Shown: positions 2,284-21,426 of the stretch, in pieces
How the letters are laid out: each line of letters opens with the position of its first letter
How positions within the stretch are numbered: the first letter of the stretch is position 1
Source of the DNA: an uncultured Acidimicrobiales bacterium
Lineage (GTDB): Bacteria; Actinomycetota; Acidimicrobiia; Acidimicrobiales; RAAP-2
Reading direction: 5' to 3'
Length of the DNA stretch: 24,000 nt
Assembly (NCBI GenBank): GCA_963806455.1
Contig: CAWDXZ010000007.1
Location: 151,367-175,366 of the forward strand
The notes under the pieces: model-generated
The model's input: only the letters and a program-made list of their open reading frames with translations
Databases searched by the model: none
Told to the model about the DNA's origin: nothing
Made by a program: the position numbers and the translations under genes

Positions 2284-2681
2284 CTCGCCGAAGTCGCAGG
2301 TCATCGGCGGTTGTAGCGGTTGAAATCGGGCTGTGTCTGTCGGTCGTCTGATCCCGGTGTACCACATCCGCACCACATTTTTCTGCGATTTTTCGGCGAG
2401 CGGCCGTTGACCCTCACATTTTGCGTGTGATGCTCAACCGCTTGGTTTCCTAGCGACCAACACCGCCAGGCGTTCCAACATTCTTTGGTTTGCCCGAGCT
2501 GACAGTTGGCGCTCTGGGTGGCTTTGGTTCGTGGGGGCCGGGCTACCCGCTACGAGGGTGATCACGAGTTCGAAGTCGCTGGTCGGCCCTACGAGAAATT
2601 CTTAGTTCGGTCAGGCCCCAGCTGCGTCACATCTCTATGGGACCGCTTTCCGTCTAGCCGCGGCCCAGGAAGGAGGGCCAC

Positions 2682-2987
2682 GTGTCGAACGTGACCCCGT
2701 CAGAGATGCACCACCACGAGCACGCCGTTGAGGTAATCGTACGGAGCCCCGCCGGGACCCCGCACCCCTTCAGCTTCGGGTTCGACGAGCTTGGGGCGCA
2801 GGCCGCCGCCACGGCGATCGCCTACTTCGTGGGCAAGCACGAGATCGAGCCCGGGGACTACGCCCTCGAGCTCGTCCGTGACGGGGTTGCCACCCCGATC
2901 GCCGACACGGCACGGCTCAGCGACTACGACCTGCACAACGGTGACGAGCTGCGGCTCATCCCCGAGCAGCCCCAGGTCGACGGGTGA
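2682..2987 (+). CDS. ubiquitin-like (beta-grasp type) protein with free C-terminal Gly, BilA-like
   Basis: 101-aa ORF. GTG 2682 lies 5 nt after GGAGG (2672-2676). The protein ends ...LRLIPEQPQVDG-stop. Its stop overlaps the next start (GTGA, 2984-2987). It is the first gene of a Ubl-E2-JAB-E1 array. The fold assignment is inferred from size, terminal Gly and context, not from a search. Confidence 0.68.
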   Translation: MSNVTPSEMHHHEHAVEVIVRSPAGTPHPFSFGFDELGAQAAATAIAYFVGKHEIEPGDYALELVRDGVATPIADTARLSDYDLHNGDELRLIPEQPQVDG

Positions 2988-3400
2988 GCCTGCATCCGGC
3001 CCTACTGGTCGAGATGCTGGAAGAGGAGGTGTCGGTCGCCCGGGTTCGCCTGGGCGACCGCATCGCCGGGCTCGACATCGTCGGCACCGACATCATCTGC
3101 ACGCTGGAGGAGACCAGCGTGGGAACGGTATACCTGCGCTTCGCTGCGGCGGACTACGACGCGGAACCCATGAGCTTCGCCGTCGTCACCGAGAGCGGCG
3201 AGATCGCCGAGACAGCGAAGTGGCCAGGCCAGCTGTTCCACTCCATCCATCCCTCGCTCGAGCGCGCCATGGCGTGCGTCGCAGGGGACCTACGAGTATC
3301 ACAGCTTCCCGGGCACACGGCCGACCGCTGGGACGCCCATCGGCGCACGCTGCGCTTCCCCCATCTTCTGGACCACATCGTCACCAAGGCAGGCAAGTGA
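2984..3400 (+). CDS. E2-like ubiquitin-conjugating enzyme homologue (Prok-E2 / BilB-like)
   Basis: 138-aa ORF coupled to both neighbours. It contains FHSIHP(89-90)SLERAMAC(98)VAG. The HP-to-Cys spacing resembles the E2 HPN...Cys active site, with the Cys codon TGC at 3275-3277. It sits between the Ubl and JAB genes. Confidence 0.66.
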   Translation: MSLHPALLVEMLEEEVSVARVRLGDRIAGLDIVGTDIICTLEETSVGTVYLRFAAADYDAEPMSFAVVTESGEIAETAKWPGQLFHSIHPSLERAMACVAGDLRVSQLPGHTADRWDAHRRTLRFPHLLDHIVTKAGK

Positions 3401-3847
3401 TGCTCACCATCCCCATCGTCCATCCTCGTCGAGGCCCGTACGTTCTTCGAGGACCGCGGCGCGCTCGGGTGCGAAGGCACCGCCATGATCGCCGGCACCG
3501 ACGGCGTCGCCACCAAGCTCGTCATCCCCGAGCAGCACGCCAACCCCGTTCCCTATTGCTCGGTCGAGGTGACCCGGCAGGGCAAGAGCGAGCTCGCACT
3601 CGCCCTCGGCCCCGACGACCGCTACGTGGCGCGCATCCACAGCCACCCCGCCCTGGCCTTCCACAGCCCGACCGACGACGCCAACCCGGCCATCACCTAC
3701 CCCGGCGCACTGTCCATCGTCGTCCCCTTCTTCGGGCTCGGCCTTCGACGCGGTCTCGACGCCTGCGCCGTGCTAGTTCGCCGCGACCGGCGGTGGCTCG
3801 AGGTCCCCGCCGGCCCGGACCGCAACGACTTGGTGGTGGCACGGTGA
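3400..3847 (+). CDS. JAB/MPN (JAMM) isopeptidase, BilC-like; 5' end frame-disrupted
   Basis: ORF 3485-3847 carries the JAMM-like HSHPALAFHSPTDD, with H-x-H...S-x-x-D spacing one residue shorter than canonical. The same frame upstream reads ...ILVEARTFFEDRGALGCEGTAMIAG, which would supply the JAMM Glu, but has no canonical start. The coupled ATG at 3400 (TGATG with the E2 stop) is in another frame (MLTIPIV...). One +1 shift at about 3403-3425 is therefore needed. The stop overlaps the E1 start (GTGA 3844-3847). Confidence 0.72.
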
Positions 3848-5403
3848 GCGACCCGCGCCTTTCCTTCGGGCTCGGCGTCGTCATCGGCGCCGGCGACGCT
3901 GTTCTCGAAGCCCTCGACGGTCTCCGCCCAGTGATCCGGGTTGGAGTTGATGTCGACGCCCGTGCTGCGACGGCTGTGGCGGCGCTCTACTCGATGCTGC
4001 TCCGGCTCTTCCCCCACACCGTCCTCGAAGGCGACGCCACCCTCGGCGCCAATCCCTGGGGTGCGACCAGGCTCGGCGAACTCGTGGGCGTGCTCGCTGC
4101 GGCGCGGCCGACTCCGAGCCGGGGGCCCGACCGGGACTTCATCGTCGGCGTTGGCGCCGTCGTCGGTGGCGCCCAGCTGTGGATGGGTGGGGACGACTGG
4201 ACGGCGGACATCGGCCCGAGCCCCCGGGCCATCCGCGGCGGCCGGTTCGGCCTAGGTCTCCAGGCCGCGGCCGCCATGGTTGCGTCGGAGATCGCCAAGG
4301 TGGCGCTGGGTCCCCTCGGGATGCGCCACTACTCATCTCGGTGACGGCGTGGTCTGGAACCTGGCCGACTACCGCCGACGCCCGGCCCCCGACATGCCGC
4401 AGCACCGGACCGCTGCGCTGGACGTCGTGTTCTTCGGCACCGGCTCGGTGGGGTCGAGCGCGGCGGGAGTCCTCACGTGCATCGACGAACTGCACCGGGC
4501 ACGCAGTCCTCGTGGACGGCGACACCTTCGACCCGACGCGCAACACCTACCGCTACCCGACCTCCCTCGGCACGGAGACGGGACCAAAGGCCAGCTGGGT
4601 CAAGGACCTGCTCGTCGCCCGGGGCTGGACTGCCGACGATGTCGTCGGGTCGGCCTCGGACTGGGTGCGCTCGCAGCCCGCCCCGGGGTTCACCGGCATC
4701 GTCGTGTCCTCAGTGGACCGGCCCGACAGTCGCCTGCAGGTGGCCGACGCCATGGCAGCCACGACCCTGAGCGTTGGCGTCGACGGCCTGGCTCTGCACA
4801 TCCAGCGCGAGCACGTCTTCGACGACTTCGCCTGCCCCTACTGCGACTTCGTCTCCCTGGAGCCGCCCATGGGCCGGATCGACTCGTTGGCCGAGCTGCT
4901 CAAGCTCCCCCAGCCCCGAGTGGCACAGCTCCTGGTCGACGGCGACATGCTCACCGCGGCCAGACATCGCCATGGTGGTCGACGCCGGCAGGATCCGCGC
5001 CGAGCGCTCCGAAGAGCTGGTCGGCCGGCGCATCGAAGACCTCATCCGGCGGACGTACGCCGAGATCTCGGTACCCGACGTGGCCGGAGCTCCAACCGCG
5101 GTCAGCGCCGCATACGTCTCGTGGATGGGCGGCATCCTGGTCGCGGCCGAACTGACCAAGGCGGCCATTGGGCTGTCGATGGTGGACCGCCGCCTCGACC
5201 TGGATCTCTCGGGTATCCCGCTCGAGGGAGTTCGGCGTCGGCTTCGTGACACGAGCGGAAACTGCATCTGCGCTTCGCCGCAGCGGTGGCGTTGGGCGAC
5301 AAGACTGTACGGAGAGCGATGGAACTCGACGACCAACAGCGGGCGGGACTCGCGGCCGGAACCCCAGACTGGGCCGCCATCTACATCGGCTGCCGGACGG
5401 TGA
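3844..5403 (+). pseudogene. E1-like (ThiF/MoeB/UBA family) adenylating enzyme, BilD-like; three frame breaks
   Basis: The protein reads across frames 1>2>3>1, with breaks at about 4320-4345, 4490-4500 and 4960. The N-terminal roughly 165 aa is a degenerate Rossmann-like region. GTGSVG nucleotide loop lies at 4436-4453, then LVDGDTFDPTRNTYRY, CPYC (4833-4844), AVSAAYVSWMGGILVAAELTKA and CIC (5263-5271). The 3' end at 5403 is uncertain and overlaps the sigma gene start. Confidence 0.75.
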
Positions 5404-5932
5404 TGTGGCGGGCAGCCTGGCAGGTGCTCGGGCCCGATCACCACTCCACCTTGGGCACTTCCGCGGATGCGATCGTTCACGACACCATGGCGGAGCTGAT
5501 GGAGAAGTCCAACGAACGCGGCATCTCGGCCATCCCACCCGACGTGAAGAGCATCGATGCGTTCTTGTGGACGGCCACCCGGCGGCGCGCCCTGCCGCGT
5601 GGTCGAGCGCTCCCGACGCAAAGAGATGAAGCCGTTCCCCGAGCCCGGGGATCCGGGTGAACCTGCGGAGTTGAAGACGACCATCGAAGCATTTGAGGAC
5701 GCCCTGATCCTTGAGCAACTCGACTCCCATCTCCACAAGCTCACCGACAACGAGCGTCGAGCGTTCATCGGGTACTACAAGCAGGGCCGAACCTACGACG
5801 ACATCGGTGCTGAGCTCGGATGTCACTGACAGGGGGGCCTCCAAGCTGTGCGCGAGAGCCGTCCGTAAGCTGACCGCTGCGGCGGGCATCGAGGTGCACG
5901 AGGACCTGGAGGAGGAAGGAACAGATGGCTGA
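5286..5932 (+). pseudogene. sigma-70 family (ECF-like) RNA polymerase sigma factor; two frame breaks
   Basis: A region-2-like segment (...DAFLWTATRRRAL) in frame 3 continues as VVERSRRKE... in frame 1. This leads to the region-4 HTH LTDNERRAFIGYYKQGRTYDDIGAELG and then, in frame 2, VTDRGASKLCARAVRKL. Breaks lie at about 5585-5600 and 5818-5826. The start is either GTG 5286 or ATG 5319. The stop overlaps the next ATG (ATGGCTGA, 5925-5932). Confidence 0.62.
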
Positions 5933-6608
5933 CGACATCGTCGAAGGCCAGATCACAGAGCTCATCGAGTCCTACGTCGCCCACCTTGACGGAGCGGGAC
6001 CGGCACCTTCTCTCGACGGGCTCGATGCCGCCACTCAGCGTGAGGCCCGCAAAGCCTTTCGTGCCGTTGATGCCGCGTGGCGTAGCGACATCGAGATCCC
6101 TCCGCTTGAGGAGGATCCAGTCGCCCTCGCCTTGGGCTTCGTGCCCCGTCGCGACGCCGGAATCGTTCGTCGTCATCTCCGGCAAGTTGGTGAAGAGGGC
6201 GCGCCAGGGGCAGCGGGCTCAAGACGAGCGACGTTGCAAACCTCCTGAAGTCGGTGGGGCTGCCGGCCGCAGACCAGAAGTGGCTGGGCCGGCTCGAACG
6301 GGCACCCGTGCAAGAGGTCGCACTTGACGTCGCCACGGGACTCGCCAAGGTGCTGGGTGTCTCGCCCGACGCCATTCGCTGGCGCAGGACAAGGACGTCG
6401 GCCCATTCGCGGAGTGGCTGTATTCGGACGAGTTCGACGCAGCTGTTCGCCGCGTGGGTTGACGAACAAGCAGGTCGAGACGCTTCCCGTGGACCTCGCA
6501 CCCCGAGCACGGAGGGAGCTCCTCGCTGCGGCCCGCCGGAGCGACGGTGATGGAGGACCGGCCCTATGGGTGCAGATGCTCAGGTCCGTTCTCGACGAGT
6601 TGTCCTGA
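5925..6608 (+). pseudogene. XRE-family helix-turn-helix protein; about four frame breaks
   Basis: The HTH core reads ISGKLVKRAR..GSGLKTSDVANLLKSVGLPAADQKWLGRLERAPVQEVALDVATGLAKVLGVSPDAI. The full protein can only be read by switching frames 3>1>2>1>3 at about 6150-6170, 6208-6212, 6370-6376 and 6452-6458. It lies immediately upstream of an ImmA-type peptidase, the classic HTH/ImmA pairing. Confidence 0.55.
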
Positions 6609-6611
6609 GCC

Positions 6612-7654
6612 ATGCCCCGGTCTCTGCGCTCCGAGCCAACGAGCCCGAGGCGATGGGCTGATCGGCTGGTCGGTGCCCTCGACGCCGGGGTGCGTGATCG
6701 CCATCGCCAACGATCCGCGGCGCGCCATCGAGGAACACCTCGGTCTGCGGGTGGTCGAACAGGGGACCCTTGGCGAGCGCGGCAATGGCGGGTGGTGCGA
6801 TGGGCTGTCGATCCTCGACGAGGGCGTCATCTTCTTTGCCCCGACAGTGAACTCGAAGAGGGCGAACTTCACCCTCTGCCACGAAGTGGCGCACTACCTC
6901 GTCGAAGAGCACACGGACTCCGAGACGTTGGATTGGGTGGCAGATCAGGCGGATCCCGACCAGGTCATCGAGCACGTCTGCGACCTTGTCGCCTCCCGGC
7001 TATTGGTGCCCGACGCCATGGTTGCCGCCGTTCTCGAAGACGTCGGCCCCGGCGGCCCGGCGGTGGCCGAGCTGTTCGCCCAATCCGAGGCGTCCCGTGA
7101 AGTATGCGCGATCGCTCTGGCCGATCGACTGGGTTGCGATGGCTTCATCGCACTGATCAACCGGGACGAGGATGTCGTCACATTCGCCTCGCGTGCCCAC
7201 GAGGGCCGGCCCTATCCACCGCGCCGGGCTGCTGTGCCGTCAGGGCATCCGCTGCTGCGACTCTCAGATCGGCGAGTCGGCCACGGCCGAGGCGTGGTGG
7301 CCCTGGCCGGACGGTTCCCTACAGCCCTTCTACCAGAGCGCGCTGCGTGACGGTCGTTGGGTCTATGCCGTCCTCGCCGCCCACGACCTGTGGCAGGTGA
7401 CGCAGTTTCATCCCGCTCCCGCAGAGCGACCCACGGTGACGGTGCCGGAGGGAAGGCTTACATGTCCTTGTGGATACAGGGGCGCAGCCCGGGGGTTCCC
7501 GTGTTCGACCTGTCACAAGATCACATGTCCGGAGTGCCACGAGTGCGACTGCGACCGCAAGGAGCGCATCGCCCGGAAGCCGTGCAAGCGATGCACTGTG
7601 AGCGTCCCCGTGGCCCAGCTTGACGAGGACGGGTACTGCACGGGGTGCCAATAA
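6612..7654 (+). pseudogene. ImmA/IrrE-family (DUF955) zinc metallopeptidase with C-terminal Cys-rich zinc-ribbon-like domain; two frame breaks
   Basis: HEXXH motif in FTLCHEVAHYLVEEH. ATG 6612 lies 3 nt after the HTH gene stop. Frame 3>1 at about 6683-6690 (a GGGG run) and frame 1>2 somewhere in 7200-7265. The last 65 aa (7457-7654) contain 12 Cys arranged as six C-x(1-2)-C pairs. Confidence 0.7.
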
Positions 7655-8419: not shown

Positions 8420-9760
8420 CTACACGCGCACGATGCGTTCGAGATCCTCGAGTTGTCGCCAGAGCTCGACGTGGGCCAGCCATCCGGCGAACTGGTCGTC
8501 CTCCGATCCGACCGGTCGTTCCTCTGTGTCGTGCTTGTGAGATGCGAGTGCGTCCCCCACCCCATCTCGCGAGACGAGGATGACTCCGAGTTGGTGGCGA
8601 CTGGTCATGACGCTGAGCCTGCCGGGCGCGAGCTCGAACATCGTGGGCTCCGGGATACCGGACAGTGTGTGCTTGGCCACCATGATCGGGCGTTGCAGGC
8701 CCTGCCAGACCTCGGCGGTGTTGGTCACCGTGTCGGGTCCAATGCCCAATCGACGGAGCCGCGACCGGACCTGCTCGTTGCTGGCAACGTGGGGATCGAC
8801 GTATCCCACATCCGCATCCGATAGCTGGCGGACACCGACCCAATCGGGTAACCGCTCGAGCATCCGCGCGATCAGGTGAGCCGAGAGTTCAGCCAGCTCG
8901 GGGTCGGACTCCGACAAGTCCCGGACCGAAGGGGGGAGCACGACGGCCACCATGCTGGCCCCCGCGGCAATGAGGTCGAGGACGGGATCGACTGGGTCAC
9001 CCATGCCCACGAGGCCGAAGGACAGACGGCGCTCCTCCGGATCCGGACCCGAGCGGAACGGTAGGTTCGGGTAGAAGGCGGGTTGGACAAGATTGACAGT
9101 GTCCTGCGGGAACCGCCATGTGGCCGGGAGGATCTCGTGCGGCAGGCCTGGGTGGCGGCGCAGCATTTCCCGGGGTGCGGCCCAATGGACCTTGTGGCGG
9201 GCAGCCTCGTAGCGTGCGAGGTCGCCACGGACCAGTGGACGCAACTGCCCAGGGTCCCCGACGAGCAAGCTCCGTGGTGCGAGGTGCAACAGCAGCATCA
9301 CGTCCTTGTAGGGCACCTGGTAGGCCTCGTCGCAGACGAGTAGGTCGAACTCGCCCTCCTCGAGCTGGGGCACCATTATCGAGGCCTTGCGCACCGTCAT
9401 TACGGTGATGGACCGATCACCGGGAAGATCGGCTGCCCGGGTGCCGAGCGTGATCTGCGGAGCACCGACAAACTCGGGTGGTGGTGGTCGCTCGGCCGAG
9501 TGGATGAGGGTGATGGGCACGGGGTAATCCCTGGCAAGTCGTCGGACGAGGTCGTAGACCTGCTCGTTCTGGAACGCAACGACGAGCGCCCTCGAACCTC
9601 CATCGGCGGCAACGGCGGCAACCATTTCCACCAAGTCGGTCTTCCCGGCGCCTGGGGGGCTGTCAACCACAACGGCATGGTGGTTCTCATGCAGCACGAG
9701 TTCGAGGATGCGGCGGCGAGCGTCCTCGTCCGCCTGGGCGATGGTCGGGGCGTCGATCAT
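8420..9760 (-). CDS. SF1 helicase-like ATPase (DNA2/Upf1- or RecD-like core, about 446 aa)
   Basis: Intact 446-aa ORF. Walker A SPPGAGKT (GAGKT at 9638-9652), Walker B/motif II LLVCDEAYQ, motif III VGDPGQL, then WRFP, QGLQRP and TSRH near the C-terminus. The ATG overlaps the upstream stop (ATGA, 9757-9760). It is the last gene of a four-gene operon. Confidence 0.85.
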   Translation of the reverse strand: MIDAPTIAQADEDARRRILELVLHENHHAVVVDSPPGAGKTDLVEMVAAVAADGGSRALVVAFQNEQVYDLVRRLARDYPVPITLIHSAERPPPPEFVGAPQITLGTRAADLPGDRSITVMTVRKASIMVPQLEEGEFDLLVCDEAYQVPYKDVMLLLHLAPRSLLVGDPGQLRPLVRGDLARYEAARHKVHWAAPREMLRRHPGLPHEILPATWRFPQDTVNLVQPAFYPNLPFRSGPDPEERRLSFGLVGMGDPVDPVLDLIAAGASMVAVVLPPSVRDLSESDPELAELSAHLIARMLERLPDWVGVRQLSDADVGYVDPHVASNEQVRSRLRRLGIGPDTVTNTAEVWQGLQRPIMVAKHTLSGIPEPTMFELAPGRLSVMTSRHQLGVILVSRDGVGDALASHKHDTEERPVGSEDDQFAGWLAHVELWRQLEDLERIVRV

Positions 9761-11169
9761 GGGCGTCGAAGCCTCCGTGCGCGGGCTAGGAGGTCGTCGG
9801 CAGGTGGTGGTACAGCCGGTTGCGGCGGCAGATCGTCCGCGAAGACGAGCGGCGTGTTGGCCGTCTGCATGGTTCGTCGGGCTCTGCCCATCTGCACACT
9901 GAAGTCAATGGGTGAGCTGTCGGTGAGCTCCAGGTCCATCCCCAACCTCCAACGATCGACGGTGCGGACCCCCGTCGAGACGTCGAAGGTCAAGAGCCGG
10001 TCGTCGCCGTCCTCGTTCTCGTCGATCAGGCGCAGATCGACGCTGTCCGTGATGGCGTGGAGCCGAGTGCCACGGCGGAGACGGAGCACTGGCTGGTCGG
10101 TACGGACGACCACGCTGCAGGGTCGGAACTTGGGCCGCCTGCCCCAGGTCACCGACTCGAGCGTGCCGGCGACGATCCGACCCTTGGAGCGGGCTACGCG
10201 ACGGGCGAAGCCGTCACCTCGGACGACGACATCCTCGGCCACATCGGCCGCATGCTCATTCTCGTCGACCATCCGGGCGAGAGCGGGCGCCCGGCTGGGG
10301 GGCGCCACCGGATTGGTGATCCGGTAGGCGAGCCGCTCCTTGCTCGCGGCGACGAGGGTCTCGATGCCAGGGAGTGGGGTGAGCGGCAGATCGAAGATGG
10401 CCCGGCGACACGCCATTAGCAGGTCCCACTCCGCTCGCGCCCCGCCACGCAGGAGCTCCTCGATCTCGGCCCGCGCTCGGGCAGCGGCCGCGTCGCGGCC
10501 TTTTGCGGTCCGCCGGAGTGCCTCGACGCGGTCGTCCACTTCACGCACGAGGACCCCACTGGCCGGCACGAGAGCACGCGCCTGGGCGGTCTCGAGGGCC
10601 GTACGGCCGTCGTCGGGCTCGACCCAGGCCAAGAGCGCCCCGAGGTGACCGTCCTCGACAGGTGACTGACCCGTGACCACGTGCTCACGCAGCACGTCGG
10701 CGCCCACCGCGACGGCTTGTTGGCCCTCGAAGCGAGCCTCCGTGGCGATGGTGATGCAGTGCCGACCCAGGGTACGCAGCTCCTCGGAGGCCTCACGGTT
10801 GGTCCGATAGCGGTGACCGAAGACCTCCATCAGGCTGAGGGCGCTCCCGTGGGGCAACCACACCCGGGGGAGTTCGTCGGCCGTGACCTGGTCGCGTAGG
10901 TACTGATCGAGCGAGACGGCCATGCGCTCGAGGCCCTCGACGTCGCGCGACAGCGGGTTCCAGCGCACCACCACGTCCGGCTCCTCACCGATGACACCGA
11001 AGGCGACAGACTGGAGGACTTCCTCGCTCACCATCTTGATCGGCGCGATCCCGAAAGCACGCGGGGGATCGTCGGCCAACCGGCGCGTCTCGACGACGGG
11101 CACGGCGCGGTCCTCTCGTCGGGCCACGAGGCGGGCCACCACGGTGGCGGTCTGGAGGGCCGAGGTCAT
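9757..11169 (-). CDS. hypothetical protein (470 aa), third gene of the nuclease-helicase cassette
   Basis: Intact ORF with ATGA overlaps at both ends (11166-11169 and 9757-9760). Codon usage matches its neighbours. I could recognise no catalytic or nucleotide-binding motif. It has a central Ala/Arg-rich helical-looking stretch (RRTAKGRDAAAARARAEIEELLRGG). Confidence 0.75.
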   Translation of the reverse strand: MTSALQTATVVARLVARREDRAVPVVETRRLADDPPRAFGIAPIKMVSEEVLQSVAFGVIGEEPDVVVRWNPLSRDVEGLERMAVSLDQYLRDQVTADELPRVWLPHGSALSLMEVFGHRYRTNREASEELRTLGRHCITIATEARFEGQQAVAVGADVLREHVVTGQSPVEDGHLGALLAWVEPDDGRTALETAQARALVPASGVLVREVDDRVEALRRTAKGRDAAAARARAEIEELLRGGARAEWDLLMACRRAIFDLPLTPLPGIETLVAASKERLAYRITNPVAPPSRAPALARMVDENEHAADVAEDVVVRGDGFARRVARSKGRIVAGTLESVTWGRRPKFRPCSVVVRTDQPVLRLRRGTRLHAITDSVDLRLIDENEDGDDRLLTFDVSTGVRTVDRWRLGMDLELTDSSPIDFSVQMGRARRTMQTANTPLVFADDLPPQPAVPPPADDLLARARRLRRP

Positions 11170-12236
11170 GCCAGTCGCCGCCGGAGTTCGACGGGCTGGA
11201 TCCCGACCAGGGGCGCCGCTTCCAACAGGGAACCGAGCAGGGCCTCCTCGTCATCGGTGGCCGGCTCGACCTCGCCCACGACCAGGGCTCGGACGTAGTC
11301 GAGATCCATTCCAGAGAGGAGCCGGCTGGCGGTGTCGCCGAGGAGGGCGGGCGTCTGGCCCGAGCGCTCGAAGCAGTGGGCGGCCATGACGCAGGACTGG
11401 TGGCAACCCTCGGTGGGGTGGATGGCCAGGTCGTCGACCAGGTTGGCCAGGTTCCCGCCCCCTTCGCGCTCGAGTTCGTCGAGGCGCTGGCGGACCCGAT
11501 CGATGACCTCGAGTGCTCGTCGGAGCTCCAGGATGGCACCGTCGAGGGCCTCCTCAGGCGGGTCGGCGGCCCGCAGGCCGAACGGGGTTGCCATCACGAA
11601 GATGGCCGTGTTCGAGACCCGGTCGCCAAGCCCGACCAACGTCGCCTCGGCTCGGAAGGCCAGGATCTGGGCGGCGGCCTGCCGGCGGGTCAGATCGAGG
11701 TCGGCCGGGTCGGCGATGTTGTCGCGGACGATGAAGGACTTCTCCTCACCGGGCTTGAAGAAGCCGGTCCGAGGATCGAGGACGGCGAAATCCGGGCTGA
11801 CGTACTCGAAGCAGCCCGGCGAGCCGGTCGGGAGGCACAGTTGCGGCTGGATCACGATGTCGGGCACCGCCCGACCGTGCGCCAGGTCGTCGAGGACCCG
11901 CCGGGTCCTGGTCAGCCGGACGGCACGCATGGTGTTGACCGGCCCCGGCACCTCGTCGGCGAAGTTACGAACCACCATCGTGTCGGGATCGCGCCCGACC
12001 AGCGGGCCGATGACGCGACGCAGCTCGGCGGCGTTGTTCTCGTGCAGGTGGGATTCGAACTTCGAGCCGCGACGGCGGGCGGCCACCCGTTCGCCGTATT
12101 CCTTCGGGTACTCCTCACCGGTGACGGCCCGGTAGAAATCGGGCTCGCGTACCCGTCGGACGGCCATGGCGGCCTGCAGGTCGCATTCGGGGTTCTTCGA
12201 GACCCTCACCAGGCCGCGGGTTCCTGAGAGGGTCAC
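11166..12236 (-). CDS. Cas4/RecB-like PD-(D/E)XK nuclease with putative 4-Cys (Fe-S) cluster
   Basis: GTG at 12236 overlaps the upstream stop (GTGA, 12233-12236), giving a 356-aa product. The longer 413-aa ORF in the track is an Arg/Pro-rich 5' extension. Nuclease motifs are GSKFE, SPD(149)FAVLD, GE(164)EK(166)SF (11739-11747) and RRQAAAQILAF (QxxxY-like). Cys18 plus C278-x3-C282-x5-C288 (11373-11405) mimic the Cas4/AddB cluster layout. Confidence 0.7.
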   Translation of the reverse strand: MTLSGTRGLVRVSKNPECDLQAAMAVRRVREPDFYRAVTGEEYPKEYGERVAARRRGSKFESHLHENNAAELRRVIGPLVGRDPDTMVVRNFADEVPGPVNTMRAVRLTRTRRVLDDLAHGRAVPDIVIQPQLCLPTGSPGCFEYVSPDFAVLDPRTGFFKPGEEKSFIVRDNIADPADLDLTRRQAAAQILAFRAEATLVGLGDRVSNTAIFVMATPFGLRAADPPEEALDGAILELRRALEVIDRVRQRLDELEREGGGNLANLVDDLAIHPTEGCHQSCVMAAHCFERSGQTPALLGDTASRLLSGMDLDYVRALVVGEVEPATDDEEALLGSLLEAAPLVGIQPVELRRRLA

Positions 12237-13003
12237 GACCCCGTCGCCTTTTCGCCCGGGGGGAGCAGGATCAGCGTCGAATCGGGGACGCCGAAGAGTC
12301 GACCGTGGTCGTCGAGACGTGCTGAGAGCTGGTCGGCGGCGACCTCGCGGTTGGTGCGATCCGTGGGCAGGAGCTCGTCGAGGAGCATCTCGGCAGCCAG
12401 GCGCCAAGTCTCGAGATCGAACTTGCCACGGCGCACCTCGAGGCCCGGCACGTCGCGGGCGTGGTCGGCGGCGAGGATGGCCATCATCTCGGGATCGACG
12501 ACGCGCTCATTGCCGCCGGCGATCCGACACAGGGCTGCCGTCATGTGGAGGTGCTGCACCCTCCCGGTCGTCGGCGCCACGACCCGCTCGGAGAGTGGCC
12601 AATCAGAACGCCCCCACAGGCGTTTGATCGCCTCCCCCCGGTCAGCCACCAGACCGTGACAAAGCCATACCGGCCGATGCCGGCCCTTGCCGAAAGCCGA
12701 AGCCTCGTCGTTGCTGAGAGATCCGAAACGGGTGGAGCTCAACTTGCGGCCGTAACGGGCTTGGGCGAAGAGCGCGAGCTCCCGCGAGAAGGCCATGGTC
12801 CCGAGGTCGGCGAGACTGTCGAGTAGGAGGTTCCGAACGGGAACCTGCCGCTTGGTTCCTCTGGCTGGCTCGTTCGGGCCTGCTGGAGCACTCGCCCTTC
12901 CGGACCCCGAGGCAAGGCGGGCGTCGATCTCCGCCAATTGTTGCGCCAGGCGGGCCCTCTCCCTCTCGAGCTCGACTTTCTCTTCATTGGCGAACTTGTC
13001 CAT
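12233..13003 (-). CDS. hypothetical protein (256 aa), first gene of the nuclease-helicase cassette
   Basis: Intact ORF starting at ATG 13003 with no Shine-Dalgarno sequence. The N-terminus looks coiled-coil (EEKVELERERARLAQQLAEIDARL), followed by a Gly/Pro/Ala linker and a roughly 190-aa domain with no motif I recognise. Its stop is coupled to the nuclease start. Confidence 0.7.
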   Translation of the reverse strand: MDKFANEEKVELERERARLAQQLAEIDARLASGSGRASAPAGPNEPARGTKRQVPVRNLLLDSLADLGTMAFSRELALFAQARYGRKLSSTRFGSLSNDEASAFGKGRHRPVWLCHGLVADRGEAIKRLWGRSDWPLSERVVAPTTGRVQHLHMTAALCRIAGGNERVVDPEMMAILAADHARDVPGLEVRRGKFDLETWRLAAEMLLDELLPTDRTNREVAADQLSARLDDHGRLFGVPDSTLILLPPGEKATGS

Positions 13004-13009
13004 TCACAA

Positions 13010-13038
13010 AATCTATCAAGTTCAATAGCCTACGGCAA
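13010..13038 (-). promoter_or_regulatory. candidate sigma-70-type promoter giving a leaderless transcript of the four-gene cassette
   Basis: The minus strand reads TTGCCG (13033-13038), then 17 nt, then TAGATT (13010-13015), then 6 nt, then ATG (13003). There is no SD. The geometry fits actinobacterial leaderless mRNAs. This is pattern-based only. Confidence 0.33.
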
Positions 13039-13183
13039 TAGGTTTCTATAAGGCGTTGCGACGTTCGACGGTGAATGAGCGGCGAGCGATCCCCGCAACG
13101 CCGCTGACCAGGTCGGACGCTCACCTGCTGACCGGAACGTGCGTCTGCGCTCCGGGAGTTACACCCGTGTAGTTTGTCGACCA

Positions 13184-14337
13184 ATGGGAACGGGCTGGAG
13201 AGTGGCGGGGCTATTCGCGGGTATCGGCGGGATCGAGCTCGGACTGGAGCGAGCAGGGATGCATACCAAGGTGCTCTGCGAGCGCTGGGAGCCGGCCCGT
13301 GCCGTCCTCGAACACAGGTTCCCCGGCGTCCGACTGACCAACGACGTTCGTGAGCTGAAGAAGCTCCCAGCCGTGGATCTCGTGGCCGCCGGCTTCCGTG
13401 TACGGATCTCTCGCAAGCCGGACAGATGAAAGGCATCACCGGAGCGGCATCCGGACTGGTCGGAGAGGTCTTCCGGCTACTCGAGGGCCGACGAGTGCCG
13501 TGGGTCCTCCTGGAGAACGTTCGCAACATGCTGGTTCTCGATGGTGGCAGAGCGATGAGCTTCCTCGTCTCGGAGCTGGAGGCGCTCGGCTATCGCTGGG
13601 CGTACCGTCTAGTCGACTCGCGCTTCACGGGGGTCCCGCAGCGCAGGCAACGGGTGATCCTCGTTGCGACGACCGAAGGCGACCCCCGAGAAGTGCTCTT
13701 CGCCGACGACGCCGGGGATCCTGGCGACTCATGGTTCGAGTCGGACGTCCACGGCTTCTACTGGACGGAGGGCCTCAAGGGTCTGGGTTGGGCTCGTGAC
13801 GCGGTCCCCACGCTGAAGGGGGGATCGACGATCGGGATCCCCTCGCCACCGGCCATCTGGAACCCCCACGCACCCGCTGGCCAGCGGATCATCGTCCCTT
13901 CGGTGACTGAGGCCGAGCAGATGCAGGGCTTCGAGGTGGGATGGACGGCGCCATCGGACTTGGTCTCGGGCCGCAAAGGGACGCGTTGGAAGCTCGTGGG
14001 GAATGCGGTGACCGTCGGGGTCTCCGAATGGGTCGGGGATCGACTTCGGTCACCGGGTCGTTTCGAGGGACAGGCCCGACCGCTCGATGGATCCGATCCG
14101 TGGCCGAAGGCGGCATGGGGCGTCAACGGCGAACGGTGGGCGGTCGAGGTGTCCATGTGGCCGACCAACGAGCCGTATCGCCATCTCGGAGACGTCGTCG
14201 ACCTGGACGACGTGGTGCCACTGTCCCTGCGGGCCGCTGCGGGGTTCTACGAGCGGGCTATGCGCAGCTCACTGCGGTTCGACGAGCGATTCCTGGACGA
14301 CGTCGCCTCCCACATCGACGTCGTGACGGCGGCCTGA
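13184..14337 (+). pseudogene. DNA (cytosine-5)-methyltransferase; single frame break inside the catalytic PC motif
   Basis: Motif I LFAGIGGIELGL. In frame 2 the protein reads VAAGF and then runs off. Frame 1 reads PCTDLSQAG..., then ENV, QRRQRV and GNAVTVGV. GGCTTCCGTGT at 13391-13401 lacks one C of the expected GFPC codons, so the break is at about 13396. The start is ATG 13184 or GTG 13139. Confidence 0.85.
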
Positions 14338-14790
14338 GGACCTCGATCGGACAGCCGCCTCCACCCGTTCGGCAGCAGCACTCGGCATTTCGTGTTCCCA
14401 GACCCGGACGACCAGCCACCCCGCCGTATCCAATTCAATGTCGGTGTCCCGGTCCCGCCGCACGTTCGCCTCGAGCTTGTCGATCCACCAGGCCCGGTTG
14501 GCCTTGGGGACGGTCCCGTGTTCGGGGCACCGGTGCCAGAAACAGCCGTCGACGAAGACGGCCACCCTGGATCGAGGGAATGCAATGTCGACCCGGCGTC
14601 GCCGCCCGGTGATCCCGATGTCCACCCGGTAACGCAGCCCCCTCGCCCACAGCTCGGAGCGAAGAGCCCGTTCGGGCAATGTGTCCCGGCGCCGCTGGGT
14701 CTTCATCCTGCGTTCGGTATCGGGACTGGAGGCGCTCGGGCGACTGCGCTGCCTCGCTTCTCGTGATCCCATCCCTCGGTCGCGTTCCAT
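14269..14790 (-). CDS. vsr: very-short-patch repair endonuclease
   Basis: DTLPERALRSELWARGLRYR...VDIAFPRSRVAVFVDGCFWHRCPEHG...NRAWWIDKLEANVRRDRD...GWLVVRVWEHE matches the Vsr family by eye. I place the start at ATG 14790 because the ORF's upstream extension looks spurious. Its 3' end overlaps the convergent C5-MTase gene by 69 nt. Confidence 0.85.
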   Translation of the reverse strand: MERDRGMGSREARQRSRPSASSPDTERRMKTQRRRDTLPERALRSELWARGLRYRVDIGITGRRRRVDIAFPRSRVAVFVDGCFWHRCPEHGTVPKANRAWWIDKLEANVRRDRDTDIELDTAGWLVVRVWEHEMPSAAAERVEAAVRSRSSGRRHDVDVGGDVVQESLVEPQ

Positions 14791-14880
14791 CCTTTCGTAG
14801 TCTCTCGCGGTGGAGGTCCTTCGCAGGAGGAACGACGAGGTCGTGGCCAGCGCTAACGTCTCCAACGACTGGGTGGCCGC

Positions 14881-15741
14881 ATGATGGACGGTCCCCGGGT
14901 TCTCTGCAGGACGATGACGGTGCCCTCCATCACTGACGAGCACGGGAACTCATGGCAGTACCACTCCCGCAGTGACCGGCACTCGAAGGTGGCGTGCTGG
15001 GCGACATTGTTCGACCTCCTCCAGCAGTCGGCACTGCTCCGTCGTCATGTCGAGAACGGCACGGTCGCCTTCGGCGTGAACCACGGGTTCACCGACTTCC
15101 GAACCCGCCGAAAGAAGAAGCTCGACTTGGTGATCCACCGACCTGGCACCCAGATCGGGATCAAGAGCGGTCGGTCTTTCGGCGAGCTGGGTCAGGGTCT
15201 CTCCGTCGAGCTCCACAGAGACGAACAAGCGCGCTTGGACTCACTTCCCGATCTCGTGGAAGCGCCAGTGGGTTCGGTCCTGATGGCACTTGAGGCGAAG
15301 GCTTGTATGACCAAGCATCGTGGGTCGGGCCCTCGTCTCTACGACGAACTCAACAGTTCTCACCTGACCGTGCACGGGGCGGCCGACCAGGCCATAGCGG
15401 TCGCCTTCGTCATGATCAACGAAGCCGACTCCTTCGTGAGCCCGGACTCCAATCGACGATCACTCGGAGCCGACGATCCACCGCCCAAGGTCACTCTGCT
15501 GCGACAGCCAAAGGCAACCGAGTTCGTCGTCGCAAAGGTTGGCGAGCTGCCCACCAGGACGAGGCCAGGACACGAAGGCTACGACGCGATCGGGATCGTC
15601 GTGGTCGAGTGTCGTAACGACGGGAGTGAAATCACCGTCGTCACGGGTCCTCCCGCACCGGCGCCCAACGACCTGTTCTCCTACGAATCGATGATCCGGC
15701 GGATCGTCCATCAGTACGACTTCCTCAACTCAAATCTCTAG
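14881..15741 (+). CDS. putative type II restriction endonuclease (PD-(D/E)XK)
   Basis: Intact 286-aa ORF divergent from vsr. It has a textbook PD-x13-EAK motif: SLPD(124)LVEAPVGSVLMALE(138)AK(140) at 15247-15300. It is an orphan sequence next to the C5-MTase and Vsr. The start is ATG 14881 or 14914. The function is inferred from motif and context only. Confidence 0.55.
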   Translation: MMDGPRVLCRTMTVPSITDEHGNSWQYHSRSDRHSKVACWATLFDLLQQSALLRRHVENGTVAFGVNHGFTDFRTRRKKKLDLVIHRPGTQIGIKSGRSFGELGQGLSVELHRDEQARLDSLPDLVEAPVGSVLMALEAKACMTKHRGSGPRLYDELNSSHLTVHGAADQAIAVAFVMINEADSFVSPDSNRRSLGADDPPPKVTLLRQPKATEFVVAKVGELPTRTRPGHEGYDAIGIVVVECRNDGSEITVVTGPPAPAPNDLFSYESMIRRIVHQYDFLNSNL

Positions 15742-18995: not shown

Positions 18996-20182
18996 TCACC
19001 TGAACTCGCTCGTCCAGCAATGGGACAATCTCCTACCCCAGAGGCAAAACGAGCTACGGCCGGAGTGCGACAACCTCAGCTGTGCATCGGAGCATCTCGC
19101 AGCTTGAGCGTCCCGCCAGGTGGCGTCGAGGCCGTCCCGCAGCCGCTCGTCGAGCGTGGGCAGCAGGTGCCCGTAGCGGTCGAAGGTGAGCTGGATGGTC
19201 GAGTGCCCGAGTCGCTCCTGGATCTCCTTGGGATGCGCGCCCTGGGCGATCAGCAGCGCCGCGCAGGTGTGGCGGAGGTCGTGGAACCGGAGTGCTGGCG
19301 GCAGTCCGGCCCGGTCCACCGCCGGCTTGTAGTGGCGAGGGTAGAAGCTGCGTCGGAGCGGTCCCCCGTTGAGCAGCGCGTGAAGACGTAGCCGTCCTCG
19401 GACGGGAATCGTGGCCAGGTGCTCGGCCAAGAGTCTCGGCCAGGAACCGGGGAATCGACACCGTACGGGACTTGCCCGTCTTGGTCGGCCCGGTTCGCAC
19501 CGTGCCGTTCACCTCGGTCAGCGCCTCGATGACGTCGATCGTGCCCCGGAGCAGGTCGAGCCGAGGAATCCGGAGCCCGGCCAGCTCGCCCCACCGCATG
19601 CCGGTGTAGGCGGCGGTGTAGATGAGCACCCGGTAGCGGTCGTCGATGGACTCGGCCAGGCGGCGGACCTCCTCCGGGGTGAGGAAGCACTGCTCGGTGT
19701 GGCTGGTCTGGCGGGGCAGGCGGATGCCCCGGCACGGCGTCCGGGGGATGACGCCGTCGGTCTCCGCCGTGGCGAAGATCCGGGAGAGCACCCGGTAGAT
19801 GCCCGCCACGGTTGACGGCGCCAGGCCCTTTTCGACCAGGTCGGCGACGAAGACCCGGACGTCGGCCGGTTCGATCCGCCCGATCTGCCAGGTCCCGAAC
19901 GCCGGGAGGATGTGGCATTCGAGATTCGAGTCGACATTGTTCAGGGTGCCCGGGCGAAGATGGGCGAGCGACGCTCGCCACCGGGCGGTGTAGCCGGAGA
20001 AGCGGACCTTGGCCAGGGAGGGGTCGGTCCAGGTGCCCTTGGGCCAGGTCGGTCTCGACCGTCCCGAGATAGGCCCGCGCCTCGGCCTTGGACGGGAACG
20101 TCCGGGTGCGCTGGCGCCCGGAGCGGTCCCGGTAGCGGGCCTGCCAACCGGTGCCCCGGGCGTCCTTCCTTACCGAGCCCAT
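18996..20182 (-). pseudogene. int: tyrosine recombinase (phage/ICE integrase); at least four frame breaks
   Basis: ATG 20182 follows GGAGGAG. The N-terminus reads MGSVRKDARGTGWQARYRD...DLAQG, then after a shift at about 20033 TWTDPSLAKVRFSGYTARW... It has a core-binding domain and a catalytic domain with MRWGELAGL, HDLRHTCAALL, LGHSTIQLTFDRYGHL (R..HxxR..Y). Further breaks lie at about 19437, 19409 and 19383. Confidence 0.85.
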
Positions 20183-20193
20183 GGAGGCTCCTC

Positions 20194-20465
20194 CTACGGA
20201 CCGGCCGGCGGACGGCGATGCCGAGCGAGCGGGTGGACCGGCGGGGCTCGACCCGGCAGGACTCGATGAAGGCGTCGAGATCGGCGGCCGAGAAGCGCAG
20301 GAGCCGGCCGACCTTGAAGTAGGGGACCCGGCGCTCGGTCACCAGGCGCCGCATGTAGCGCTCGGTGACGTTCAGGTAGCTGGCCGCTTCCGTGCAGGGT
20401 GAGCGGGCGTCCGTGCGTTGGCGCGGGCTCGTCCGCCGGCTGCCGGTGGCGTCGGTCTGCGGCAC
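20194..20465 (-). CDS. xis: excisionase / MerR-like HTH_17 DNA-binding protein; 3' end uncertain
   Basis: GTG 20465 lies 10 nt after GAGGAGG. The HTH reads TEAASYLNVTERYMRRLVTERRVPYFKVGRLLRFSAADLDAFIES. It lies directly upstream of int. The frame as given never stops before int. A stop (TAG, 20194-20196) is reached only after a one-base shift in the C-run near 20240. Confidence 0.6.
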
Positions 20466-20579
20466 TGCCTGGTCACCTCCTCGGGCGCTCGATCCCCGTC
20501 CGGGGTGCACACCACACCTCCACGTTCGGCCCGGATCAAGTCGACCCGGCGGACCGTCGGCCCCTTCCCTCGGATCCCT

Positions 20580-21426
20580 GGTCACGGGCGCCTTCCGCAG
20601 GACCAGCAGGTCCTCGTGGGCAATGGCCAGCAGCGGCGTGCCCGCCGCCCGGGCCTTGCGGACCTGGTCCAGCTGGAAGAACGAGACCCGCGGGACCAGC
20701 CTGTCGTCACGCAGCCCGGCGAGCAGGGCCACGTTGCGCTCGTAGGGGATGAGTCCGGCGGCCTCGCCCACAGGCGAGGACGGCGGCAGGCAGGTCGACG
20801 AGCTCCCCGCCCTGGCGCCAGGGGCGGGCGGTCACGACCACGAAGCCTCCCGGGCGGAGCAGTCGGGCACATCCCGGCAGGATCGTCGGTGAAGCCGCCG
20901 AGCAGGTTCTCGGTGCTCTGGTGGGCGAGGTTGCCCGGATCCCGGGAGTAACGATCATGGCTCTTCGCCAGGCCCTGCCCGGCTCGGACCCGGACCTGGC
21001 CGTGCAAGCGATGCCCCATAGGGGGGTGAGGTCACCACCAGCGCGACCAGACCCCGCACCGCGGGATCGACGATGGCCTCCAGCGAGCGGGCATCGCCGG
21101 TGACCACCTCGCCGTGGCCGGTCGCGCCCTGGTCTCGGGCCAGCTCGACATTGGCCCGAGCCAGGTCGGCCCAGGGCTCCTCGTACTCGACCCCGATGGC
21201 ATCACGGCCGAGGTGGACGGCTTCGACCAGCGTCGTCCCGATCCCGCACATGGGGTCGAGGACGAGATCGCCCGGCCTGGTGTAGGTGGCGATGGCCCGT
21301 TGGGCGATGGCCGGGAGCATCTTGGCCGGATGGGTGCCCGAGAGCTCCAGGTACCGACCCGATCGCTGGGCTCGTGCCGTGCGTTGGGCGACCGGCCAGA
21401 CGGACAGCGGTAGGTCAGTCGGCCAT
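20580..21426 (-). pseudogene. N4/N6 DNA methyltransferase (copy 1), several frame breaks
   Basis: The protein reads LPLSVWPVAQ...HPAKMLPAIAQRAIATYTRPGDLVLDPMCGIGTTLVEA...ALVVTSPPYG. After shifts it continues ...NLAHQSTENLLGGF / ILPGCARLLRPGGFVVVTARPW / GLIPYERNVALL...LLAIAHEDLLVLRK. Both ends are approximate. Confidence 0.68.

Follow-up and report, generated by a model that had tools for sequence, protein, structure and literature searches.

Dna2 carries its nuclease, barrel, stalk and helicase domains in that order along one polypeptide, and Nhi is a defence system in which a single protein is both nuclease and helicase. A bacterial Dna2-like enzyme, Bad, has been described from Geobacillus (PMC7430649). 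Cas4-like nucleases fused to superfamily 1 (SF1) helicases and encoded beside Dcm and Vsr have been predicted to act in defence (Hudaiberdiev et al., 2017, PMC5704561), MORC ATPases found with helicases, cytosine methylases and Vsr have been predicted to form restriction-modification (R-M) systems (Iyer, Abhiman, and Aravind, 2008, PMC2292703), and Vsr-like domains fused to defence helicases have also been described (10.1101/2025.09.15.676423). The present study concerns a four-gene cassette, ABCD, on the minus strand of a 24,000-nucleotide stretch of DNA (the window) from contig CAWDXZ010000007.1 of an uncultured Acidimicrobiales bacterium (GCA_963806455.1). We consider that there is about an even chance that this cassette is the effector half of a six-gene, methylation-linked, R-M-like defence module carried on small integrative islands, the other two genes encoding a C5 cytosine DNA methylase and a Vsr-type T:G mismatch endonuclease.

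Like Dna2 and Bad, the closest known enzymes, the cassette combines a Cas4/RecB-type PD-(D/E)XK nuclease with a 1+3 cysteine layout (protein B) and an Upf1-like SF1B helicase (protein D), and the nuclease, barrel/stalk and motor order of those enzymes matches the gene order B-C-D. However, Dna2 and Bad are fused in one polypeptide whereas the cassette encodes three separate, coupled proteins, and the relation is therefore a likeness and not membership. Besides, C has an extra N-terminal domain of about 225 amino acids (aa), the cysteine spacing of the cassette nuclease is C-x3-C-x5-C instead of C-x2-C-x5-C, and neither the fourth protein (A) nor the link with a methylase and Vsr has a counterpart in these enzymes. 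In the fold searches with B and C, the 50 best matches did not include Dna2 itself. The UvrD-Cas4 systems found with Dcm and Vsr share with the cassette a Cas4-like nuclease, an SF1 helicase, a C5 methylase and Vsr in defence contexts, but they fuse a UvrD-type SF1A helicase to a nuclease matching Pfam PDDEXK_1, whereas the cassette has an SF1B helicase, a separate nuclease that Pfam does not recognise, and the obligatory extra proteins A and C. The MORC/paraMORC systems are likewise mobile operons with a cytosine methylase, a Vsr-superfamily endonuclease and a helicase that have been read as R-M-like; they contain a GHKL/MORC ATPase and an SF2 helicase, whereas the cassette has no such ATPase, an SF1B helicase and a Cas4-like nuclease. 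Our module shares the logic of the UvrD-Cas4 and MORC systems, its nearest predicted counterparts, and, except for the methylase and Vsr, not their proteins.

Type I and Type III R-M systems and class 2 DISARM likewise join a self-marking methylase to an ATP-driven translocase and a PD-(D/E)XK nuclease. Loss of the methylase is tolerated in Type I and Type III systems, which need it for recognition, and class 2 DISARM uses a C5 methylase. Their translocases, however, belong to SF2, the Type I and Type III methylases modify N6-adenine, and the methylase linked to our cassette is mostly convergent to it and, unlike in Type I, Type III and DISARM, not in the same operon; component models of DISARM, Type I and Type III gave no match to A, B or C. 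Nhi, Hhe and Mokosh also use Upf1-like SF1 helicases with a nuclease in anti-phage defence, and Hhe has a Vsr-like nuclease domain, but these are single large proteins or two-gene systems and the matches to them lie far below family level. More generally, A, B and C matched none of the models of named defence systems in PADLOC-DB v2 (Hachiman, Gabija, Nhi, Mokosh, Hhe, MADS, DISARM, Druantia, Zorya, Wadjet, Dnd/Ssp and others) at E ≤ 1, a collection that dates from 2023 and does not cover later systems. Protein D gave only generic P-loop/SF1 matches in Pfam, PADLOC, NCBIfam and PHROG, including MkoA, MkoC and Hhe over 40-60 residues (E from 1e-7 to 1e-4; 2.6e-7 for MkoA/MkoC, over about 50 residues in the Walker B/motif III region) and a longer but weak stretch of the NCBIfam 'PLuB' helicase (E 4e-7). 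No description of this gene set was found in the open-access literature on PLuB, on Cas4-like proteins together with Streptomyces, or on Dcm/Vsr together with helicase defence. A preliminary description of the locus, made from the sequence alone, had placed the cassette in no named defence system, and this still holds, since none of the four proteins confidently matches a PADLOC model.

Organization and Conservation of the Cassette

All four genes lie on the minus strand: A at 12233-13003 (256 aa), B at 11166-12236 (356 aa, beginning with GTG), C at 9757-11169 (470 aa) and D at 8420-9760 (446 aa). C presumably serves as a scaffold that connects the nuclease with the motor. On the coding strand their junctions are 4-nucleotide (nt) overlaps, GTGA at 12233-12236 and ATGA at 11166-11169 and 9757-9760, and these overlaps recur in many distant homologous loci. 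An open reading frame (ORF) check of the window found no internal stop in any of the four genes, and GC content at third codon positions was 0.77-0.81 across all four frames, as for real genes where regional GC is about 60-70%. Coordinates, starts, stops and overlaps are thus exactly those from which an intact, translationally coupled cassette had been proposed. The ORF list extends B upstream to a TTG at 12407, but homologues of B begin with MSLSGTRGL, and for this reason the GTG at 12236 was taken as its start.

A candidate leaderless promoter of gene A lies at 13004-13038 on the minus strand, with a -35 element TTGCCG (13038-13033), a 17-nt spacer, a -10 element TAGATT (13015-13010) and 6 nt before the ATG of A. 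It agrees with the sigma-70 consensus at 8 of 12 positions and falls below the threshold of a generic sigma-70 scan. The block, its spacing and its distance from the ATG are kept in a related locus (L089 in our numbering) as TTGACA-17-TAGAAA-6-ATG, the remaining intergenic DNA having diverged; the cassette proteins of L089 are 71-80% identical to those of the window. Because of this conservation the promoter is kept as a reasonable candidate, and the earlier promoter claim stands in part: the string is present at 13038-13001 and its block is conserved in L089, but it was not called by the generic scan. A direct repeat, CTATTG(CCGTAGG)CTATTGAA, occurs within the promoter block (13016-13041), overlapping the -35 element, and may be an operator; L089 keeps it at 5340-5375, as CTATTGACAGATGTTATTGAA.

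Contigs with related genes were retrieved in three ways, via C, via B and via a peptide pattern found only in A. Each family is rare: among 5.8 billion clusters, a first search at E ≤ 0.001 returned only 83 with A, 97 with B and 42 with C, and a superfamily profile of C gave 596 representative clusters among 1.84 billion. Synteny across genomes had been set beforehand as a test of whether the four genes are a unit, and the order A-B-C-D on one strand was kept across phyla in 43 distinct A-containing loci after removal of duplicates. For each of the four proteins the homologues on these dozens of unrelated contigs are full-length, which exceeds what chance would give. B-C-D lies downstream of A in every locus that is long enough except L118 and L121, one of which has a truncated C while the other has A alone near a contig end. 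The hosts comprise the high-GC actinobacterium-like organism of the window, Chloroflexi, a Pyrinomonadaceae acidobacterium, alphaproteobacteria and Pseudomonas aeruginosa, in which the copy is carried on a conjugative element with type IV secretion genes. The ABCD unit is tightly conserved and has spread horizontally among Actinobacteria-like bacteria, Chloroflexi, Acidobacteria and Proteobacteria, including the P. aeruginosa conjugative element. Defence-type neighbours of the cassette include McrBC, SRA-HNH, EVE-HNH, AbiEii, GmrSD, CapP-like and BilC-like proteins and an SLFN-type helicase with MazG. Mobility neighbours are integrases, and some islands consist of an integrase, in some cases an HNH gene, ABCD, Vsr and the methylase, and little else.

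Association With a C5 Methylase and Vsr

The six-gene reading is carried by the recurrent association of the cassette with a C5 methylase and Vsr. In the window, the C5 methylase lies divergent from A at 13139-14337 on the plus strand, and Pfam DNA_methylase matches both halves of it. One nucleotide is missing from TTCC(C)G at about 13396-13398, which breaks the gene into ORFs at 13139-13429 and 13426-14337; the deletion falls just before the catalytic Pro-Cys motif, and GF/PCTDLSQAG is read across the two frames. Either the gene is a true pseudogene or the frameshift stems from a sequencing error in a homopolymer. The Vsr endonuclease is encoded at 14269-14943 on the minus strand (ORF of 224 aa; Pfam Vsr, E 2e-15); its true start is probably near 14790, with the conserved part in about the last 155 aa.

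A neighbour census was made by clustering all ORFs from 22 well-flanked informative loci. Besides A-D, the only recurrent real genes were the C5 methylase (14 loci; homologues of the window methylase adjoin the cassette in 13 of the 22) and Vsr (13 loci), and in one clade also an HNH gene; the remaining recurrent clusters were antisense shadow ORFs overlapping these genes. A C5 methylase, a Vsr or both lie within 3 kb of the cassette in 16 of the 22 loci, and three further short contigs end in a Vsr directly beside it, whereas neither gene was found near any of 79 loci lacking A (0 of 75 Streptomyces-type loci and 0 of 4 others). The methylases are Pfam-confirmed, and the arrangement corresponds to R-M in the broad sense of a DNA methylase genetically linked to a nuclease-containing effector. 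The cassette-adjacent Vsr homologues are 36-62% identical, and their ends commonly lie 10-250 bp from that of D. The layout seen most often is a methylase-Vsr operon convergent on the cassette; in other loci the methylase lies beside D, a divergent Vsr/methylase pair lies downstream, or the methylase lies upstream and Vsr downstream, and in the window the methylase and Vsr are divergent from A.

The cassette-linked methylases belong to three or more lineages sharing only 25-30% identity, which indicates that the linkage has been re-formed, beyond inheritance alone. At the same time, identity co-varies with that of the cassette for both the methylase (Mantel r 0.48, p 0.004) and Vsr (Mantel r 0.36, p 0.004), and taken together these observations indicate a link that is both old and repeatedly rebuilt. 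No conserved partner restriction enzyme was found, the genes past the methylase being an integrase, AbiEii, an HD protein, a regulator and metabolic genes. Given the adjacency in 16 of 22 loci, the functional unit most likely comprises six genes, ABCD with the methylase and Vsr. The headline of the preliminary description, a self-contained four-gene system, is for this reason not favoured. The data agree better with the alternative that it had mentioned, in which the cassette and the C5 methylase form one larger modification-linked system. In the same way, the methylase and Vsr of the window, earlier assigned to a separate 'R-M trio', are because of this recurrent linkage most likely partners of the cassette instead.

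Other modification-related genes were observed near some cassettes. In one clade (5 loci), a 316-aa HNH protein is encoded about 60-100 bp upstream of A (L109:2183-3133, L112:8928-9878, L120:8873-9820, L122:8945-9919 and L124:8953-9903); it matches PDB 6yex ('HNH endonuclease') at E 2.9e-74, which we take to be VcaM4I, a modification-dependent EVE-HNH enzyme. SRA-HNH (in L002) and McrBC (in L005) flank cassettes that have no methylase. The Mesorhizobium locus L010 carries, 1.3 kb upstream, an N4/N6-type methylase with an SPPY motif where other loci have a C5 methylase, and its D gene is broken into two ORFs (these features lie at L010:3371-4705 and L010:9332-10780).

Nuclease B and Helicase D

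The AlphaFold model of B (mean predicted local distance difference test score, pLDDT, 91.9) has as its top Foldseek matches in the PDB the Cas4-family protein ACE1, MGME1, lambda exonuclease, the AdnAB nuclease domain, human EXO5 and RecE, with probabilities up to 0.99, E-values from 4e-3 to 6e-2 and TM-scores of 0.2-0.45. Among 49 homologues, D149, K166 and the three cysteines of C278-x3-C282-x5-C288 are invariant, and E164 and C18 are almost invariant. The model and the alignment support B as a Cas4/RecB-type PD-(D/E)XK nuclease with D149, E164 and K166 as predicted catalytic residues, and C18 with C278, C282 and C288 is predicted to form the 1+3 layout of an iron-sulfur cluster; the earlier recognition of a Cas4/RecB-like nuclease with this cysteine layout, including E164 and K166, is thereby supported. 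At the sequence level, B had no match at E ≤ 1 in Pfam, NCBIfam, PADLOC or PHROG, and a B family profile run against PDB sequences returned no nuclease, only coiled-coil and low-complexity noise. Since there is neither a curated nor a PDB sequence match, B is a new sequence family within its fold class.

Protein D passes the Pfam cut-offs for AAA_30, AAA_11 and AAA_19. A family profile of 19 members found IGHMBP2, DNA2, UPF1, NAM7 and SETX/Sen1 as the best PDB matches (E from 1.6e-15 to 4e-11), with RecD2 at only 9e-5, and DNA2 was the top match when the single D sequence was searched against the PDB. The motifs GAGKT (Walker A, with K40), DEAYQ and GDPGQL, on which a compact SF1 helicase had been proposed, are invariant across the family, and motifs V and VI are present. 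Judged from its sequence, D is a compact Upf1/Dna2-like SF1B helicase core, and its polarity is predicted to be 5'->3' from family membership only. Because the Walker A motif starts 35 residues from the N-terminus, D has no N-terminal accessory domain of stalk and barrel. The accessory stalk, 1B barrel and 1C domains are not on the D polypeptide; a stalk-plus-barrel is found instead at the C-terminus of the upstream protein C.

Proteins A and C

Neither A, B nor C belongs to a curated family in Pfam (2025 copy), NCBIfam (June 2026), PADLOC-DB (2023) or PHROGs. A consists of a variable N-terminal helix of coiled-coil-like appearance, as had been noted for the 256-aa protein, a linker of low complexity and, after it, a conserved domain (about 190 aa) with the motifs TRFG..DE, KRLWxRSDWPL and APTTGR and 16 invariant columns in the alignment. 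No match to A was found in Pfam, PADLOC, NCBIfam or PHROG, its family-profile search of the PDB gave only noise, and a Pfam scan of every member of the A and C alignments revealed no recurrent family.

The AlphaFold model of C (pLDDT 90.6) comprises an N-terminal alpha/beta domain (residues 1 to about 225), long helices (227-328) and a beta-barrel (332-416). No full-length structural neighbour of C was found in the PDB or in BFVD (viral proteins). Partial Foldseek matches were obtained with Sen1/SETX (167-185 columns, probability 0.96-0.98), together with weaker, full-length alignments to Aquarius, and the barrel also matches those of translation factors and HerA. Sen1, SETX and Aquarius belong to the same helicase family as D, and the C-terminal helices and barrel in the model of C resemble the stalk and 1B barrel of Upf1-like helicases. 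For the N-terminal domain, the order of strands and helices fits an RNase H-like or a PD-(D/E)XK-like core; BFVD gave weak matches to RNase H and polymerases (probability 0.25-0.38), a profile-profile comparison of C with B aligned the cores at a non-significant probability of 0.2%, and that of A with C found no match. By sequence, C matched no Pfam, NCBIfam, PADLOC or PHROG family and only noise in a PDB profile search, in agreement with the earlier statement that the 470-aa protein has no recognised motif, and the structural check added only the partial stalk/barrel resemblance. An exact-sequence look-up of the window's C on contigs found none, and a cluster look-up of the window proteins returned no names.

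Natural C-D fusions in one reading frame were found in two proteins, P0239 (985 aa, in which about 60 residues link the two parts) and P0236 (816 aa, truncated by the contig end), and support a physical association of C and D. Since C carries the stalk and barrel that D lacks and such fusions exist, B-C-D reads as a Dna2-like enzyme split into three genes. This layout is a natural experiment on the use of the stalk and barrel by Upf1-like helicases, with the module placed on a separate protein and sometimes re-fused to the motor.

A Chromosomal Branch in Streptomyces

When genomes were scanned with the C profile, at least 586 matches were obtained, mostly in Streptomyces. The Streptomyces-type loci (75 species loci, L012-L086) contain a tightly coupled B'-C'-D' set without A, methylase or Vsr, as at L013:6553-10720 and L025:6275-10753. 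Identity to the window proteins is about 25-30% for B', about 30% over the N-terminal half for C' and about 35% for D'. In B' the catalytic residues and the C-x3-C-x5-C cysteines are retained, together with a canonical QxxxY motif; C' is a C-like protein of 520-530 aa, and D' is an AAA_11/AAA_12 helicase, with an extra Pfam match to AAA_12. The homologues in Streptomyces are annotated just as 'hypothetical protein' or 'AAA family ATPase'. Flanking genes, among them those for a spermidine-synthase-like protein, a tetratricopeptide repeat (TPR) protein, a His-phosphatase and PAP2, recur in 59-70 of the 75 loci, the nearest flanks in 68-70.

B-C-D would accordingly be an old three-protein engine with a housekeeping-looking chromosomal branch and a mobile branch, of which only the mobile branch has A or the link with methylase and Vsr. 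The existence of B-C-D without A, methylase and Vsr implies that the core enzyme is not intrinsically a defence device. B'C'D' may be an unstudied DNA-processing complex of Streptomyces, a genus that to our knowledge has no RecBCD, and this chromosomal paralogue points to an unstudied nuclease-helicase complex in actinomycete genome maintenance.

Other divergent triplets were also observed. In L002, a second, very divergent B-C-D-like triplet (311, 460 and 451 aa; L002:13661-17339) lies directly downstream of ABCD, and its C matches the Streptomyces type better than the window type (E 2e-8 against 0.005). Two A-less B-C-D loci of Chloroflexi (L001:3876-8712 and L004:3827-8649) are divergent from a conserved trio that encodes a sigma-70 region-4 protein, an HTH_31 protein and a fusion of M78 peptidase, UvrD helicase and PDDEXK_1 nuclease. 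The fusion protein of this trio is of the UvrD-Cas4 type of Hudaiberdiev et al.

Proposed Function and Alternative Explanations

According to the six-gene reading, 5-methylcytosine made by the C5 methylase would mark the host's own DNA. B, C and D would assemble into one complex, their gene order being collinear with the domains of Dna2 and Bad, and the C-terminal half of C would supply in trans the accessory module missing from D. This complex would load at a 5' end or nick and move 5'->3', and the displaced strand would be fed to nuclease B and cut. A may be what connects the BCD engine with methylation status or with the methylase and Vsr proteins, and it is the best candidate for coupling because it is confined to the mobile, methylase/Vsr-linked branch. 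Vsr may either repair the T:G mismatches that arise from 5-methylcytosine deamination, its classical role, or supply an entry nick, as has been proposed for Vsr-family proteins of predicted R-M systems (PMC2292703) and as observed with Vsr-like domains that are fused to defence helicases (10.1101/2025.09.15.676423). As in Type I and Type III systems, restriction would require the methylase to recognise its targets, and loss of the methylase would disarm the module without killing the host. We favour such methylase-dependent restriction because intact cassettes persist without a methylase and the window methylase is frameshifted; a frameshifted methylase beside an intact cassette argues against lethal restriction that is independent of the methylase.

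Several observations weigh against the six-gene R-M-like reading. Intact cassettes without methylase or Vsr within 3 kb make up 6 of the 22 informative loci (L005, L007, L009, L010, L091 and L002), and the frameshifted methylase of the window stands beside an intact ABCD, which would be intolerable for a classical restriction enzyme; the latter objection falls if restriction needs the methylase or if the frameshift is a sequencing error. The methylase lineages are as diverged as 25-30% identity, yet the cassette proteins have no evident variable specificity domain to match. A modification-dependent HNH protein beside the module in 5 loci is awkward next to a writer of 5-methylcytosine. Moreover, the structural matches are weak, with Foldseek E-values all above 1e-3 and low TM-scores, and B'C'D' lies among housekeeping genes, so that the core engine may be a repair enzyme.

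A more far-reaching version of the R-M-like reading is doubtful as a whole: a new class of 5-methylcytosine R-M in which a C5 methylase and a matched Vsr-type nickase are the site-specific parts and a three-protein, split Dna2-like helicase-nuclease, recruited via A, is the destructive part, Vsr or methylase-A licensing entry at unprotected sites and the SF1B motor degrading processively 5'->3', with the corollary that B'C'D' of Streptomyces is an unrecognised end-processing or repair complex. If the methylation link is functional, the R-M repertoire gains a 5-methylcytosine-based, helicase-driven system, and many 'orphan' Dcm-Vsr pairs on mobile elements gain a role. The module is compact, at about 6.5 kb including the methylase and Vsr, and its catalytic residues are clear.

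Among the rival explanations, the one that survives best, although we judge it unlikely, is a stand-alone four-gene defence in which ABCD senses and degrades invading DNA and the methylase-Vsr pair is a dispensable co-traveller. It agrees with the intact ABCD that occurs without a nearby methylase or Vsr in L005/L093, L007, L009, L010 and L091, with the intact ABCD beside the frameshifted methylase of the window, and with the swapping of methylase lineages among loci that have kept ABCD; single-protein nuclease-helicase defences such as Nhi provide a precedent. However, drift within islands poorly explains why 16 of 22 loci show this adjacency, and show it in several independent arrangements, when no other gene recurs in this way and some islands carry only an integrase besides the module. 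The presence of A also correlates with that of the methylase and Vsr, and the A-less loci never have these.

Next in rank is methylation-plus-repair, which we hold to be quite unlikely. In this explanation an orphan C5 methylase, of anti-restriction or epigenetic use, travels with Vsr, and ABCD excises the strand that Vsr has nicked. Vsr nicks 5' of the mismatched T, and Dna2 removes 5' flaps; by analogy, the SF1B motor would peel the strand 5'->3' from the Vsr nick and the Cas4-like nuclease would remove it. A nick with a 5'-ended strand is a fitting substrate for the Dna2-like architecture, Vsr commonly abuts D directly, there is no partner restriction enzyme, the Streptomyces branch sits repair-like among housekeeping genes, and loss of the methylase would be harmless, as in the window. 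Nonetheless, 4.6 kb of extra genes would be a costly addition for a job normally done by the host's DNA polymerase I, and most Dcm-Vsr pairs do without ABCD. Furthermore, intact ABCD persists where both methylase and Vsr are absent, and its neighbours are overwhelmingly defence genes.

It is improbable that the cassette encodes a general complex for DNA-end processing or repair, a mobile counterpart of RecBCD, AddAB or AdnAB related to the Streptomyces operon, that would contribute at most a generic degradation of linear DNA left by neighbouring restriction enzymes. Such a function would accord with the fixed chromosomal site that B'C'D' occupies in 68-70 of the 75 species loci, flanked by His-phosphatase/PAP2 and further housekeeping genes, with the catalytic residues, QxxxY and cysteines retained in B', and with the AdnAB nuclease domain among the fold matches of B. 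The window branch, by contrast, is rare and patchy across phyla, lies on integrative islands and a conjugative element beside defence genes, and has gained A and the methylase/Vsr link that the chromosomal branch does not have.

A phage or integrative and conjugative element (ICE) replication-recombination module of exonuclease and helicase serving the mobile element itself, also raised in the preliminary description, is very improbable and was rejected: B does resemble lambda exonuclease and RecE at the fold level, and the cassette does sit on integrative elements and the P. aeruginosa conjugative element and on one contig of IMG/VR, but C has no match in 72,556 plasmids or 50,697 phage genomes, A, B and C have no PHROG match, the lone locus among 2.9 million IMG/VR viral contigs is an integrase island (integrase, ABCD, Vsr and methylase) among whose examined ORFs no phage structural gene was identified, and no single-stranded DNA-binding protein, recombinase or replication initiator is associated with the cassette.

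Island Context

The island of the window starts at a tRNA-Gly (2211-2284). In the segment between this tRNA and the cassette (2658-7654), ORFs with broken frames surround a fragment resembling BilC (3401-3847, E 4e-7) and a CapP-like M78 peptidase (6547-7350, E 1.2e-14). In L089 the cassette occupies the same site, beside WS/DGAT and dUTPase genes; that locus is without the Bil/CapP segment and has Vsr but no methylase. The defence-island setting proposed earlier was right as to the tRNA, here a tRNA-Gly, the BilC-like fragment, the C5 methylase and Vsr, but the third R-M gene counted there, a 286-aa ORF at 14881-15741 on the plus strand, has no match in Pfam, PADLOC or the PDB. This ORF may encode a PD-(D/E)XK restriction enzyme, to judge from its residues LDLVI ... 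LEAKAC. It was considered as a conserved seventh gene or cognate restriction enzyme and rejected, having no homologue in the related loci and no database match, and it probably lies outside the conserved module.

Many of the genes around the cassette are broken, and the view of the cassette as the only long intact stretch of accessory DNA in the window was upheld; so many broken island genes imply either a decaying island or assembly indels. Towards the other end of the island, at 19054-22326, an integrase ORF matches only the first half of the integrase profile, an excisionase-like ORF matches HTH_17, and two overlapping ORFs match the same part of an N6/N4 DNA methylase profile; these ORFs look like further frame breaks or a duplication.

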